Shown one piece after another: positions 30,225 through 33,693 of a stretch of 64,000 nucleotides of DNA. How positions within the stretch are numbered: the first letter of the stretch is position 1; every line of letters starts with the position of its first letter. Source of the DNA: Mycobacterium phage prophiFSAT01-1. Location: sequence record BK061308.1; one strand, 5' to 3'. Under the pieces are notes generated by a model. It worked only from the letters and a program-made list of their open reading frames with translations. It did no database searches and was not told the origin of the DNA. A program made the translations under genes and the position numbers.

Positions 30225-30339
30225 CATGCCCGAATTAGCTGTGTAACAGGCAATTCGGGCATCTCACACTTCCGCTCACACCCGAGCGGATCGCCCGAAA
30301 CGGGCGCCCCCTCTATGCGAAACGCAGGAGAGATCTCGC

Positions 30340-30960
30340 ATGTCAGAAGAAGCCGGAACCCCCACGCCCAACTCGATGCCCGGAGCGGCCGAGGCCGCGG
30401 CTGGTCAGCAGCCAGACGCGACGGGGGAGAGCATCGACGAGCTGGAAACTTCGTATGACGAACAGCTCGCGGCGCTAGAGAGCGAACGCGACCAGTGGCG
30501 CGACCAGGCGCGTAAGAACGAGGCTCGCGCAAAGACCAACGCGGCCAAGGCGAAGGAACATGATCAGCACTTCGCCGAGTACAAGGCCGCGTTCGATCGC
30601 GAACAGCAGAAGAAGGAAAGCGAGAAGACACCCGATCAGCGTGTGCTAGATCAGGCGGCTCAGGATCGGGCTCGCGCCGAGAAGGCCGAGGCTGACAAGG
30701 CTGAGGCAGACGCTCGCCTTCTGAGATACCAACTGGCCGACGGTATTCCGCCGTTCGCGCTGCCACTGATCACGGCGACTTCTGAGGAAGAGATCACTGC
30801 CGAGGTCGAGGACCTAAAGGCCAAGCTGGCTGCCTACGTCACTGAGGTGACCAATAGCCAGTCCCGCAGGCCAGCTCCCGATCCGGCGTTTGGGCGGGGC
30901 GGTGCCGCTGGAGCAACTCCAGAAGAGCAATTCGCCGCAGCGCTCAGAGGCGTTATTTAG
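30340..30960 (+). CDS. scaffolding protein
   Basis: Acidic, Ala/Glu/Lys-rich coiled-coil protein directly upstream of the major capsid gene. Confidence 0.65.
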   Translation: MSEEAGTPTPNSMPGAAEAAAGQQPDATGESIDELETSYDEQLAALESERDQWRDQARKNEARAKTNAAKAKEHDQHFAEYKAAFDREQQKKESEKTPDQRVLDQAAQDRARAEKAEADKAEADARLLRYQLADGIPPFALPLITATSEEEITAEVEDLKAKLAAYVTEVTNSQSRRPAPDPAFGRGGAAGATPEEQFAAALRGVI

Positions 30961-30993
30961 CAACCACTTTCATTTGAAAGGAGGTCACACCAA

Positions 30994-31887
30994 ATGGCTG
31001 GTGTGGACATCAACCGGACTACAAACGGGGTGCTTCTGCCCCCGGCTGTGTCCCAGCAGATCTGGCAGAACGTCCAGCAGGCTTCGATCATTCAGCAGCT
31101 CGTGCCGCAGATTGATCTGCCCGCTGGTGGTCTGTCCATCCCGATTATCACGGGAGATCCCCAGGCCGAGTGGGTCGATGAGACCGACGAGAAGCCGGTT
31201 AGCCGTGGATCGCTGAGTTCCAAGAACATCAAGGGCTACACGCTTGCCGTGATCGTCCCGTTCTCGAACCAGTTCAAGCGCGACCTTCCGGGCCTGTACA
31301 ACGCCCTGGTCAGTCGCCTTCCGCGTGTCCTGGCCAAGAAGTTCGACCGTACGTGCTTGGGGTTCGATCCCTCGCCCGGTACCGGATTCGACACTCTCGC
31401 GGCTGCGCCGACCGCTTCGATCGCAACCAACGTTTACGACGGCTACGTCGATGCGTTGGAATCGGTTGCCGCGGTCGAGGGCTCAGACGTAGAGCGTTGG
31501 GTTCTCACCTCTCAGGCCGAGATCGCAGCGCTCGGCGCCAAGGACACGATGGGCCGCCCGATCTTCATCGACTCGGTCACCCGTGAGGGCCGGGTTGAGC
31601 GTGAGATTCTGGCGCGCCCCGTCTCCAAGACCCCGCATGCCTACAAGGCCGGTTCGCCGTCCACCGTGGGCTTCGGTGGCGAGTGGTCCACGGCGATGTG
31701 GGGCTACGTGGAGGGCCTGTCCATCGACATCTCCAGCCAGGCGAGCCTGACTGATGGTGCCGAAACGCTGAACCTGTGGCAGCGCAACATGTTCGCTGTC
31801 CGCGTGGAGTTCGAGGTTGGTTTCGCCGTTCGCGACGTGAACCGCTTCGTCCGCATCACGGGCGCGAACGCCGCATCGGGTAGCTAG
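30994..31887 (+). CDS. major capsid protein (HK97 fold)
   Basis: 297 aa with AAAGGAGG ribosome-binding site. Position and composition are typical of actinophage MCPs. Confidence 0.8.
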   Translation: MAGVDINRTTNGVLLPPAVSQQIWQNVQQASIIQQLVPQIDLPAGGLSIPIITGDPQAEWVDETDEKPVSRGSLSSKNIKGYTLAVIVPFSNQFKRDLPGLYNALVSRLPRVLAKKFDRTCLGFDPSPGTGFDTLAAAPTASIATNVYDGYVDALESVAAVEGSDVERWVLTSQAEIAALGAKDTMGRPIFIDSVTREGRVEREILARPVSKTPHAYKAGSPSTVGFGGEWSTAMWGYVEGLSIDISSQASLTDGAETLNLWQRNMFAVRVEFEVGFAVRDVNRFVRITGANAASGS

Positions 31888-31905
31888 GGCAGAAGGGAGC
31901 GGACA

Positions 31906-32310
31906 GTGGCCGCCGTCGCAATCACCAGAGGCGAGATTCAGGCACATCTACCGGGTGCGCCCGACGAAGTGGTTGATCGTCTCATCGCTGGCACGATTGC
32001 GCGCGCGGCCCTGTTCGCGCCCTGCATCACATCCGTCGATTTCCCCACCGAGAAGGCGGCCGCTGCAAAAGACATCCTGATCGATGTCATCGTGCGTGCC
32101 GCCGAATCGGGGAGTGGCGTCCAGAGCAACATCATGGCTGGCCCTTATCAGGTCAGCTCAGATACTTCAAAACCGAGACGCCGTCGCTTTGAGACCGACG
32201 AGATACGCGATCTCAAGGCACTGTGTGGCATCAAGTCGGGCGGTGCGTTCACCATCACGCCGACATACGACGCGACCGACGCATATACCGAGGATGTGAC
32301 CCCGGCGTGA
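31906..32310 (+). CDS. head-to-tail connector/adaptor
   Basis: Size and position after the MCP. Confidence 0.5.
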   Translation: MAAVAITRGEIQAHLPGAPDEVVDRLIAGTIARAALFAPCITSVDFPTEKAAAAKDILIDVIVRAAESGSGVQSNIMAGPYQVSSDTSKPRRRRFETDEIRDLKALCGIKSGGAFTITPTYDATDAYTEDVTPA

Positions 32311-32771
32311 CGATCGTCGCAACCATTCCCACCAATCTGCTGGGCGCGCTGCACCGCTACAACCCGATCGCGGTCAACGCGGAGAATGCGCCAGTTCGCA
32401 CGTGGACGCCACCGAAGGATCAGCGCGGAGTCTTGTTCTGGTTTCAGGCGGCCGCGCCCCCTGGCGGCGCTGGTGACCCGGAATACATCAAGGATCGATC
32501 CGTCGATCGGGTTGAACTGTATATCCCACCCGTGCTTATCGACATCGACGGCAATGCAATGGACGACCCCGGCGCGATGGACGTAATCGACCTCCCCGAC
32601 AGGAACTCATTGCGAGGCGTGCGGCCCGGACGCGCTGGCCTTCTGCAAGCGCTCGATGACGACCGAATCGTCTGGAACCGCTACGAGGTTCAAGGCTGGC
32701 CCCGCGACTACACCAACGGTTTTCACCTATGGCAACCAGGCAAGGTTATCGATCTAGAAAGGGTCACCTAA
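32307..32771 (+). CDS. head-to-tail connector protein
   Basis: GTGA overlap; position in the module. Confidence 0.45.
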   Translation: MTIVATIPTNLLGALHRYNPIAVNAENAPVRTWTPPKDQRGVLFWFQAAAPPGGAGDPEYIKDRSVDRVELYIPPVLIDIDGNAMDDPGAMDVIDLPDRNSLRGVRPGRAGLLQALDDDRIVWNRYEVQGWPRDYTNGFHLWQPGKVIDLERVT

Positions 32772-32950
32772 TGTTCCGCGTTCATCTCAAAAACGCTGAC
32801 CCTGTGGATTTTCCCGAAGGGGGTAAAACCGAATGGGAGACCGAAGAGGTCACCAATAATCTGGTGGTCAGCACCGAGACACGGGTCGCCATCTTCAACG
32901 GTGATCAGTGGACGCATCTTGTTGAGGATCGCGACATCGATGGCGAGTAG
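32771..32950 (+). CDS. small head-tail protein
   Basis: TAATG overlap with the upstream gene. Confidence 0.35.
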   Translation: MFRVHLKNADPVDFPEGGKTEWETEEVTNNLVVSTETRVAIFNGDQWTHLVEDRDIDGE

Positions 32951-33212
32951 CCGGATTCGCATCCAGCACAAGGTAAACGGCTACTACAAGATTCGTGCAG
33001 CTCCCGGCGTCAAGGGCGACCTTGAGCGCCGCGCTGCCGGGATCGCCGCGGCGGCGAACGCCGAGTCCGGCACGGGCGGATTCAAAACCAGCAGCATGCA
33101 GGGCGTCAAGCGTCCACAAGGTCGCTGGCGTACGACCGTAATTCCGACGACATTCAAGGCCATTCGGCACAATGCTCGACACAATACTTTGGTGAAGCGG
33201 CTCCATGGCTGA
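32940..33212 (+). CDS. head-tail connector protein
   Basis: Start overlaps the upstream stop. Basic protein. Confidence 0.4.
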   Translation: MASSRIRIQHKVNGYYKIRAAPGVKGDLERRAAGIAAAANAESGTGGFKTSSMQGVKRPQGRWRTTVIPTTFKAIRHNARHNTLVKRLHG

Positions 33213-33627
33213 GCTGATAGTTCCCAAACCATCTGTAGCACTAGCGGTTCAGGCATTGACCGCAGGGCTACCACAAGCTGGCCTAACCAGTGTCTTCGTT
33301 TCTTCCAAGAAACCGGGCACGGCGACGGGTCACCGCATCCTGCCCGGCAAGTTCATCCGCGTAACGCGACTGAACTCGGGAGGGATGCTCAATCGCGTTA
33401 CCGACCAGGCACATCTGCTGATCGAGTGCTGGGACGATAGCGGAGAAGGGGAGAAGCTGGCCAACGCAGCGCGTGGGGTGTTGCGCGCTGCCAGTGGCCA
33501 AACGATCGCTGGCGGATTCGTTCGTTGTGCCGGTGACGATAACGGGCCCGTGGAATTTCCCGATCCCGACGTGCCGAGTCACGACCGCTATCAGTTCACG
33601 GTCGACCTGCTCATCTCCACCAACTAG
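33205..33627 (+). CDS. tail terminator-like protein
   Basis: Last gene before the major tail subunit. Confidence 0.45.
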   Translation: MAELIVPKPSVALAVQALTAGLPQAGLTSVFVSSKKPGTATGHRILPGKFIRVTRLNSGGMLNRVTDQAHLLIECWDDSGEGEKLANAARGVLRAASGQTIAGGFVRCAGDDNGPVEFPDPDVPSHDRYQFTVDLLISTN

Positions 33628-33693
33628 CCCGAAACGGGTGCCCCTCAGGTCCGGTCCAAGTTCCGACCACTTCTCAGTAGAAGGGGACCAATT

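Follow-up and report, generated by a model that had tools for sequence, protein, structure and literature searches.

An evolutionarily conserved small RNA hairpin preceding the principal structural genes of a McProf-type Mycobacteroides prophage

Stem-loops that affect the stability of operon mRNAs are exemplified by the Escherichia coli ompA leader, papBA, and the RNase III sites of phage T7, while hairpins serving as translational operators include those of the MS2 coat protein on the replicase gene, the targets of T4 RegA, and the site of Mu Com on mom. Additionally, post-transcriptional autoregulation has been reported for the scaffolding protein of phage P22. The late control of mycobacteriophages and other actinobacterial phages is poorly understood, with no late promoter, activator or antiterminator defined to our knowledge; these phages are in development as therapy against Mycobacterium abscessus. 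Intergenic RNase E sites have been documented in mycobacteria, where the enzyme cuts 5' of C in single-stranded C-rich regions (PMC10641625). The boxB hairpin of phage lambda is recognised by the N protein as a GNRA fold (PMC2724277 and its reference 13). Among mycobacteriophages, the Cluster K start-associated repeats (SAS) are 13-bp sequences, GGGATAGGAGCCC, which lie 3-7 bp before the start codon, contain the ribosome-binding site and are restricted to non-structural genes; their extended inverted repeats (ESAS) are described without RNA-pairing support, and a link to translation is suspected (PMC3203893).

The DNA analysed here, referred to as the window, comprises 64,000 nucleotides of Mycobacterium phage prophiFSAT01-1 (BK061308.1) and represents a McProf-type (cluster MabR) Mycobacteroides prophage. 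McProf has been studied only as a lysogen, in which its reverse-strand gene gp56 is expressed (PMC8191103). The relevant genes are all on the plus strand, with ATG start codons at 22548 for the small terminase (terS), 30340 for the scaffold, and 33694 for the major tail protein. Their identities are supported by Pfam Terminase_7 for terS, PHROG 1793 for the scaffold and PHROG 123 for the tail terminator, while that of the major tail protein rests on annotated relatives. Relatives for the wider comparison were chosen by capsid homology; among cultured phages for which lytic RNA-seq has been published, capsid identity outside MabR reaches approximately 34% at most.

A first-pass annotation had reported a near-identical stem-loop motif upstream of the scaffold and major tail genes, matching at 19 of 20 positions. 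Both copies are present on the plus strand, as GCCCGAAACGGGCGCCCC at 30293-30310 ahead of the scaffold gene (site 1) and GCCCGAAACGGGTGCCCC at 33627-33644 ahead of the major tail gene (site 2), and the window holds no others even when three mismatches are allowed. The reported similarity is about right, as the copies agree at 17/18 positions, or in 19 of 21 columns (one mismatch, one gap) when extended to ...CCCCCTC and ...CCCC-TC. The distance of 47 nt to the scaffold ATG is confirmed, while that to the major tail ATG is 67 nt instead of 63. Each copy had also been said to follow a terminator or hairpin, which is accurate for site 1, where a terminator (30195-30219 plus T5) is succeeded by two further hairpins, while the hairpin at site 2 lies immediately against the tail-terminator stop codon, TAG. 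On its own, an 18-mer occurring twice in 64 kb is unremarkable; the significance of the motif derives from its conservation in relatives, from covariation, and from the presence of five sense-strand hairpins confined to gaps of the late operon. Three of these, namely two in the terS leader and a second one in the scaffold leader, had been overlooked, and the defining unit is a hairpin capped by CG-NAA-CG rather than a 20-mer. A chance repeat is ruled out by conservation, covariation and leader-specific enrichment.

The conserved unit can be described as a GC-stem hairpin with a CG-NAA-CG cap. Its five sense-strand copies occupy the three long gaps in the late operon: pairs precede terS and the scaffold gene, and a single copy precedes the major tail gene. 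Nearest-neighbour folding prefers to treat the cap as an NAA triloop with a closing G-C pair, and a GNRA-like GNAAC pentaloop is the alternative reading; across relatives any of A, U, G and C occurs at the first loop base, and the AA is invariant. Late-leader gaps (444 nt) contain 5 of 34 cores, against 0.24 expected (P = 5e-6), none of 5000 dinucleotide shuffles produced as many hairpins in the leaders, and the opposite strand of the same 444 nt holds no copies. When the window was ranked by model R1, the scaffold, tail and terS leaders came 1st, 2nd and 4th, respectively, and 11 of the 12 matches in 1.3 Mb of related loci were gene-sense. A loose test of location near a start codon gave only two-fold enrichment, against a background of 14.5%, and unrestricted counts of hairpin loops per locus were too noisy to use in GC-rich DNA. 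Scanning the whole collection for CCCGNAACGGGYGCCCC yielded 90 matches, about half of which are irrelevant, since they encode P-R-N-G-R-P where an HNH endonuclease gene begins; only a handful (L064/L098/L115, L101, L028, L031) are true leader copies. A minus-strand look-alike at 55164-55152 (GTGCGAAACGTGC with GTCCCCTTCC) falls within a small CxxC-motif coding sequence and was treated as chance.

The scaffold leader, whose fold has a z-score of -8.3, is preceded by an intrinsic terminator located inside the late operon (30195..30224, plus strand; 10-bp GC stem and T5), with counterparts at the matching place in many relatives. It is followed on the same strand by a long hairpin, UGCCCGAAUU...AAUUCGGGCA (30227..30261; tip GUAAC), the sequence of which varies among relatives while the structure is kept; in McProf, this hairpin is replaced by a reverse-strand insertion. 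The next hairpin, hp1, is (U)CCGCUC-ACACCC-GAGCGG(A) at 30271..30290, with a conserved CUUCC just before it; a double change from G-C to A-U occurs in FSQJ01/L120, and completely different stems take its position in L122, L123 and L128. Motif copy 1 forms hp2, CGCCCG-AAA-CGGGCG (30292..30306), with a predicted unpaired probability of 0.06; its four inner base pairs are invariant, and the two outer ones covary (CG/UG/GU/GC/UA and GC/UA/GU/AU). The hairpin runs into a C-rich CCCC(C) linker and an anti-Shine-Dalgarno (anti-SD) strand, CUCU (30311-30314; together 30307..30314), for which the predicted unpaired probabilities are 0.76 (30306-30310) and 0.09 (CUCU). A second CG-NAA-CG hairpin, the upper stem of hp3 (UGCG-AAA-CGCA, 30316..30326), then leads to the Shine-Dalgarno (SD) sequence GGAGAG (30327-30332), partly paired with CUCU, and to the ATG (30327..30342 in all). 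In the anti-SD:SD helix, formed by 30311-30314 with 30327-30330, two pairs show double changes. No intrinsic-terminator T-run follows the motif hairpins, which are succeeded instead by GCCCCCTC and GCCCCTC, and a terminator scan of the region found only the separate one at 30195-30219.

In the major tail leader, also on the plus strand, copy 2 folds as GCCCG-AAA-CGGGU (33627..33639), and the first base of its stem is the G of the tail-terminator stop codon (TAG, 33625-33627). A G-U pair changes to A-U in FVLQ01 and FSQJ01, and hairpins occur at the same place in L122 (GCCCG-UAA-CGGGC) and L123 (GAGUCCCG-CAA-CGGGAUUC). The region from 33640 to 33696 extends from the tail GCCCCUC, predicted to be mostly unpaired (64-76% for the GCCCC tail of the motif), through the major tail ATG. 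According to the predicted fold, GGUCC (33648-33652) pairs with GGACC (33685-33689), which overlaps the SD sequence GAAGGGGA (33680-33687); in FSQJ01, GGACC becomes GGAUU, and G-U keeps the pairing. Additionally, CCCCUCAGGUCCGGUCCA is homologous to the 5' arm of an SD-burying hairpin in distant major tail gene leaders, and the GC hairpin is absent from the Che9d group, the nearest tail-gene relatives among cultured phages that have published lytic RNA-seq. A candidate extra copy within the tail-terminator gene, CGCG-UAA-CGCG (33358..33368, plus strand), is ambiguous: it encodes a conserved peptide, R-V-T-R, ranks 6th by model R1, and corresponds to an 11-bp stem in L123 that is absent in L122.

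The first hairpin in the terS leader is a folded plus-strand one, GGCACUG / CAGUGCC (22469..22496), which is conserved in L119 and L121, and the loop of which contains two CUGUUUC repeats complementary to the GAAAC loops downstream. Two abutting hairpins of the CG-NAA-CG type follow, A (UGACCG-AAA-CGGUCG, 22502..22516) and B (GCGCG-AAA-CGCGC, 22516..22528), the latter ending 20 nt upstream of the terS ATG. At the position of hairpin A, relatives keep a hairpin with other stems (GGACG-CAA-CGUCC in L120), and the counterpart of hairpin B in L118 is GCGCG-CAA-CGCGC.

The test set in advance by the first-pass annotation was whether the motif persists upstream of orthologous genes in relatives, and it does. 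Four MabR relatives retain both sites, showing changes of G-C to A-U and G-U, and matching leaders carry hairpins in relatives down to approximately 52% capsid identity, where the stems differ and the cap is identical. In the covariation analysis, 96.9% of cells were paired, compared with 34-54% in slid controls; double changes were found in six pairs, two of which belong to the anti-SD:SD helix, and among 14 sequences the observed covariation was reached in 0/500 shuffles. The stems covary among G-C, A-U and G-U pairs, with a free first position and a constant AA in the loop, a combination indicating an RNA element, and the element begins right after the upstream stop codon in many relatives, indicating an intercistronic RNA. 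Compensatory pairing, strand specificity and orthologous positions were all found, characterising a structured cis-acting mRNA element. It occurs in phages of several host genera, and other lineages of the same capsid family have other fixed caps (GCGAU, CGAACG, CGCACG), used several times in a leader.

The hairpins and the anti-SD:SD helix are conserved, covarying, sense-strand and leader-specific. We infer cleavage, stabilisation and an effect on translation, and tentatively favour, with slightly less than even confidence, an intercistronic mRNA module that sets segment stability and ribosome access. The late genes would be transcribed as a long polycistronic RNA in which the stable hairpins may act as fixed structural blocks, and cleavage would fall in the unpaired C-rich linker beside them (GCCCC, CUUCC), the kind of site that mycobacterial RNase E would be expected to prefer. 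The sequence context of the tail GCCCC fits this preference (PMC10641625), making it a candidate cleavage site. Once cut, the upstream segment would be capped by a hairpin at its 3' end and the downstream one at its 5' end; the hairpins might also keep the following anti-SD strand in register, placing the ribosome-binding sites of abundant structural genes in a defined local helix. Overall, each gene of the operon would be expected to have its own mRNA stability and rate of translation. Processing or stability and translational control, two of the three roles originally proposed, are favoured because the stems covary with a fixed loop, because G-U pairs work only on the sense strand, and because the C-rich tail runs into the SD-pairing strand, whose pairing also covaries; the third, a late promoter element, is weakened.

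A purely thermodynamic role leaves two features unexplained, namely that the cap's G, A, A and C and the CCCG/CGGG of the inner stem do not vary over large distances and that lineage-specific fixed caps are repeated per leader; both look like specific recognition. Burying the SD of the most abundant proteins also seems counter-productive unless something opens it. Alternatively, the hairpins might be bound in trans by an RNA-binding protein, encoded by the phage or conserved in the host, and serve as its operators. Such a protein would read the GNAAC cap and the stem top and turn translation of the late structural genes on or off, one conceivable way being to open or clamp the anti-SD:SD helix next to the hairpin, in parallel with Com on mom, the MS2 coat protein on the replicase operator, or the autoregulation reported for the P22 scaffolding protein. 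This explanation, which we consider unlikely, gains from the freedom of the outer pairs and the loop N beside an invariant cap and inner stem, from the occurrence of same-cap hairpins as tandem pairs, from the repeated use by each lineage of its own cap, and from the anti-SD strand immediately 3' of the hairpin. However, a scan for arginine-rich small proteins gave only noise and no candidate protein, no co-occurring genes beyond the structural ones were found within the available flanks, the different caps all resemble GNRA-type loops favoured for stability alone, and the presence of the element in several host genera would demand wide conservation of a phage-specific partner. More broadly, the CG-NAA-CG hairpins and their sister caps GCGAU, CGAACG and CGCACG might constitute an unrecognised family of protein-binding operators in many actinobacterial siphophages, each lineage pairing its own cap with its own N/boxB-like or Com-like late regulator that controls whether terminators are passed or the terminase, scaffold and tail genes translated; this is a speculative proposal and rather doubtful, and if true it would provide the first defined late-gene control system for this large phage group.

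A further difficulty for the favoured module is the strong terminator inside the operon, just upstream of site 1, which calls for read-through or for a promoter. Read-through could be provided if the hairpins were boxB-like or put-like antitermination signals: nascent hairpins of the terS leader, with reinforcement from those of the scaffold and tail leaders, would render RNA polymerase terminator-resistant, with an N-like protein or by themselves, so that the terminator at 30195 is passed and the 25-kb late operon stays processive. The 5-6 bp GC stem and the cap, when read as a GNRA-like five-base loop, resemble lambda boxB, with similar predicted energies; the cap G-N-A-A-C, with A, U, C and G all seen at its second base, fits G-N-R-A plus one base; the first late gene has the first hairpin pair in its leader, ahead of the terminator; relatives often have terminators immediately preceding the scaffold leader; and the tandem abutting hairpins recall HK022 put. 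We nevertheless regard antitermination as improbable. The only string resembling boxA (CGCUCUUA / UGCUCUUUA; PMC2724277) is CGCUCACA (30273-30280), an arm of hp1, which was rejected as a covarying stem with a compensated change in L120 and unrelated stems in L122, L123 and L128. Sites 1 and 2 are downstream of or far from terminators and adjoin ribosome-binding sites, a placement unnecessary for an elongation signal, the hairpins occur in many relatives without a terminator, and a scan of arginine-rich small ORFs identified no N-like protein, returning mostly out-of-frame noise in GC-rich DNA. The other route, in which the motif acts as DNA and serves the scaffold-capsid and tail gene blocks as a late promoter or a binding site for an activator, is highly improbable. 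A new transcript might begin after the terminator at site 1, and the motif is a dyad like many activator sites, but zero sigma-70-like sites (-35 and -10 hexamers, 16-18 nt spacing) were found in 26000-40000 and 21500-23000, a scan limited to that promoter type; moreover, the arms change yet stay complementary with G-U pairs that work only in sense RNA, the leader copies are on the sense strand only, and in many relatives no room is left, with the element directly after a stop codon or within 3 nt of a terminator T-run.

No published description of the motif was found in the literature searched, and covariance models of Rfam 15 matched nowhere in the whole window at curated gathering thresholds; at E up to 10, only matches far below each family's gathering score appeared, mostly on the terminator at 30195. 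The motif is presented as a candidate new RNA family for curation and a landmark for annotating late-gene starts, being a short, easily mutated element that marks the terminase, scaffold and major tail leaders in many related phages and prophages. It offers a handle on how one long operon yields the right ratios of structural proteins, on RNase E processing versus a translational operator versus antitermination, and on the insulation of lysogen-expressed insertions from late genes.

The motif, a small RNA hairpin kept through evolution in front of the principal structural genes, most likely tunes mRNA stability and ribosome access, and it differs in some respect from each of the described systems. 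Like the Cluster K SAS/ESAS, it is a short repeat in a single orientation just upstream of mycobacteriophage start codons (PMC3203893), but it is a covarying hairpin upstream of the ribosome-binding sites of structural genes; the motif was rejected as an SAS, having a different sequence and ending 29 and 49 nt before the start codons without containing an SD. It resembles the lambda/P22 nut boxB in its short GC stem (5-6 bp), in a cap that can be read as five-base and GNRA-like with a free second base, and in having one set in the leader of an operon containing an intrinsic terminator. In contrast to nut, the scans found no boxA or N-like protein, several copies per operon lie next to ribosome-binding sites, and GNRNA is replaced by GNAAC, for which closure as a triloop is also possible. 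The MS2, RegA and Com operators are likewise small fixed-loop hairpins at a ribosome-binding site whose access depends on local pairing, although in the prophage the SD and start codon belong to the neighbouring helix rather than to the hairpin, a candidate operator. Compared with operon stability stem-loops, the prophage stems are too short for RNase III, unlike the T7 sites, and the cap is conserved far beyond the need of a generic protective hairpin, cleavage and stability being inferred here; as in those systems, stable hairpins stand at polycistronic gene boundaries, adjoin single-stranded C-rich stretches, and precede the most abundant gene products.

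The stretch at 29800-34300 shares 79-93% identity with four McProf-type (cluster MabR) Mycobacteroides prophages, whose annotation gives a late gene order of small and large terminase, portal, MuF/ADP-ribosyltransferase fusion, a small gene, scaffold, major capsid, head-tail connectors, tail terminator, major tail protein, chaperones and tape measure. Profile hits match this annotation for the small terminase gene (terS, 22548-23036), the HNH gene directly ahead of it, the scaffold gene (30340-30960) and the tail terminator gene (33205-33627), all on the plus strand. The late operon genes are encoded on the plus strand throughout and are closely packed, the only long gaps being 22332-22547, 30178-30339, 33628-33693 and one past the major tail gene. 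Just past the major tail stop lies a large GC-rich hairpin lacking a T-run (CACCCCGGCAA at 34287-34297 with UUGCCGGGGUG at 34325-34335), which may either protect a 3' end or act as a partial terminator bounding the tail-gene segment. Repeats were also recorded elsewhere, namely a 132-nt tandem duplication of 77% identity within the MuF/ADP-ribosyltransferase fusion gene (27011-27274) and six 40-nt repeats at 45107-45602, a region annotated in one relative as a minor tail protein gene. In the early region, the 13-mer ATCAACTACCAGG occurs exactly three times on the plus strand (7731-7743, 11282-11294 and 18828-18840), each copy within a short gap that precedes a plus-strand gene, and at up to 2 mismatches it gives eight matches against 0.8 expected; a role as an early or middle promoter, or as a start-associated sequence, is possible.

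Two copies of a stem-loop motif had been reported in the first-pass annotation ahead of the scaffold and major tail genes, and a window scan confirmed both on the plus strand, at 30293-30310 (GCCCGAAACGGGCGCCCC, site 1) and 33627-33644 (GCCCGAAACGGGTGCCCC, site 2), with no further match in the window at up to 3 mismatches. The reported distance of 47 nt to the scaffold start codon was reproduced, whereas that to the major tail start codon measured 67 nt rather than 63 nt. Each copy had also been placed behind a terminator or hairpin, which holds for site 1, where a strong intrinsic terminator (30195-30219 followed by T5, plus strand) and two other hairpins precede the motif, whereas the stem of site 2 begins on the last base of the upstream gene's stop codon. 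Between the terminator and hp1, the first of three successive scaffold-leader hairpins (hp2 being motif copy 1), a long hairpin at 30227-30261 starts with UGCCCG, ends with CGGGCA, has the tip GUAAC and resembles an hp2-type hairpin with an insertion. The equivalent place in McProf (L001, 1935-2075) holds the reverse-strand gene gp56. Studies of McProf concern the lysogen alone, and there gp56 and the reverse-strand insertions adjoining these leaders are expressed (PMC8191103). More reverse genes lie between HNH and terS, so the insertions sit immediately ahead of the hairpin modules without disrupting them.

The set of hairpins proved larger than the two reported copies. The same design is shared by hp3, the second capped hairpin of the scaffold leader (UGCG-AAA-CGCA, 30316-30326), and by two abutting terS-leader hairpins (UGACCG-AAA-CGGUCG and GCGCG-AAA-CGCGC, 22502-22528), all on the plus strand. 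Scanning the window for the CG-N-AA-CG core, or cap, with a stem yielded seven plus-strand hairpins, and all five of those with an AAA loop lie inside the three late leaders. These leaders total 444 nt and hold five of the 34 plus-strand cores (expected 0.24, P = 5e-6) and no minus-strand core; in 5000 dinucleotide shuffles of them, five hairpins never arose. Of the remaining two hairpins, one lies in coding sequence at 50545 (plus strand). Another, CGCG-UAA-CGCG at 33358-33368 on the plus strand, lies within the tail terminator gene and codes for the conserved peptide R-V-T-R, whose valine codon is GTA in all six sequences examined, a codon presumably rare in DNA this GC-rich; its stem reaches 11 bp in one relative (L123) and is missing from another (L122), and it may represent a sixth copy or just reflect the coding sequence. 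A minus-strand look-alike at 55152-55164 (GTGCGAAACGTGC then GTCCCCTTCC), situated at the end of a small CxxC-motif coding sequence and just ahead of a minus-strand gene of 336 aa, was taken as chance. The first terS-leader hairpin (22469-22496) carries in its loop two CUGUUUC repeats, kept in L119 and L121, that are complementary to the two downstream GAAAC caps, which may allow loop-loop pairing or a different fold.

Searching relatives upstream of orthologous genes, as initially suggested, showed capped hairpins recurring at the same leaders. Both motif sites are retained in the four MabR relatives, where the outer pair changes from G-C to A-U (at both sites in FVLQ01) or to G-U and the first loop base is freely A, U, C or G; in FSQJ01 (L120), both sides of a G-C pair of hp1 have changed to A-U. 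The nearest cultured relatives outside MabR have about 34% capsid identity or less, and capsid relatives, together with flanks of 10 kb, were drawn from IMG/VR and GTDB. Capped hairpins occupy the same leaders at capsid identities of 75% (L122), 69% (L123), 58% (L127), 57% (L128) and 52% (L139/L201, Rhodococcus rhodnii); they precede the major tail gene too in L122 and L123, and terS, with unrelated stems, in L120, L118, L127 and L139. Tandem copies occur in independent contigs before terS (L098/L115) and before the scaffold gene (L101), with the string GCCCGNAACGGGCGCCCC recurring among them. A second collection scan found the two-hairpin arrangement in many more scaffold-type leaders, one of which (L281) reads terminator, CAUG, GCCCGCAACGGGC, GCCCACUCU, AGCGAAACGC, AGGAGAAC, AUG.

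In an alignment of seven leaders picked by capsid homology, 96.9% of cells are paired, against 34-54% with the partners slid, and six pairs show two-sided changes. The outer pairs of a 14-leader alignment take the forms CG/UG/GU/GC/UA and GC/UA/GU/AU, with covariation that none of 500 shuffles equalled. The inner CCCG/CGGG pairs and the G, A, A and C of the cap are invariant, by construction for pattern-found sequences and as an observation for L122, L123 and L128. When the window is scored with a covariance model built on the two-hairpin module, the scaffold leader comes 1st, the major tail leader 2nd and the terS leader 4th; of the model's 12 matches across 1.3 Mb of related loci, 11 are gene-sense and in scaffold, terS or tail leaders. 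The covarying arms, the G-U pairs, which are possible only in the sense strand, and the strand specificity together show that the motif is an RNA element and not a DNA site. From its sequence, the cap could be read as either a triloop or a GNRA-like pentaloop.

At site 1, the C-rich tail GCCCC (predicted 76% unpaired) is followed by CUCU (predicted 9% unpaired), which pairs around hp3 with the GGAG of the Shine-Dalgarno (SD) sequence. This helix covaries, three of seven sequences having C-G in place of U-A; many of the more distant scaffold leaders have it in a simpler form, CCUCUC-GCAA-GGAGAG, and GCC[C/A][C/A]C is kept as the tail after hp2 in many contigs. The tail of site 2 is predicted to be 64% unpaired, and past it GGUCC forms a helix with GGACC; the latter overlaps the SD and becomes GGAUU in FSQJ01 with pairing preserved through G-U. 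The stretch CCCCUCAGGUCCGGUCCA here has a homologue in distant major tail leaders, where the homologous sequence is the 5' arm of an SD-burying hairpin (CCCxUUCAGGCC...GCCUGAAAGGGG); those leaders have ACUGAAUA repeats in place of the GC hairpin. Thus, the reported 20-mer is a hairpin, a short single-stranded linker and the start of an anti-SD strand. In the major tail leaders L012-L026, which come from the Che9d group and from metagenomic relatives, between one and three ACUGAAUA-like repeats stand where the window has the GC hairpin, the first overlapping the upstream stop codon and a conserved SD-burying hairpin following. The capsid gene SD (GAAAGGAGG, 30967-30984) is half-buried in a small hairpin, CUUUC-AUUU-GAAAG, so that local pairing involves the ribosome-binding site of each of three genes, scaffold, capsid and major tail.

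The roles initially offered are thus supported in part, those at the RNA level being favoured and a promoter being very improbable: no sigma-70-like promoter was found in 26000-40000 or 21500-23000, and in many relatives the element directly abuts the upstream stop codon or begins no more than 3 nt from a terminator T-run, which leaves no space for one. Terminator identity was rejected because no T-run follows the motif hairpins. The reading tentatively preferred, at a little under even chances, is an intercistronic mRNA module combining processing or protection with ribosome access. Mycobacterial RNase E cleaves 5' of C within single-stranded C-rich regions (PMC10641625). The hairpin-linker-hairpin layout, the conserved CUUCC before hp1 and the stop-abutting hairpin of site 2 fit processing and protection, and the covarying anti-SD helix fits control of ribosome access.

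An operator for an RNA-binding protein is a less probable competitor to this module. Three features point to specific recognition: a cap and inner stem that do not vary, copies in tandem, and the different but likewise fixed caps (GCGAU, CGAACG, CGCACG) that other lineages within this capsid family use. No candidate partner protein was found among the genes searched. A boxB- or put-like antitermination signal, for which the strong terminator inside the late operon speaks, seems improbable. There is no lambda-type boxA, as the string that resembles one is a covarying stem, and the Cluster K start-associated sequence was rejected as an identity. No Rfam family matches, the motif goes unmentioned in the MabR genome paper, and literature searches gave no description of it. 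The way in which the element is conserved would be compatible with a new operator system. The element belongs to no described family, but in its working it would resemble known leader and intercistronic hairpins.
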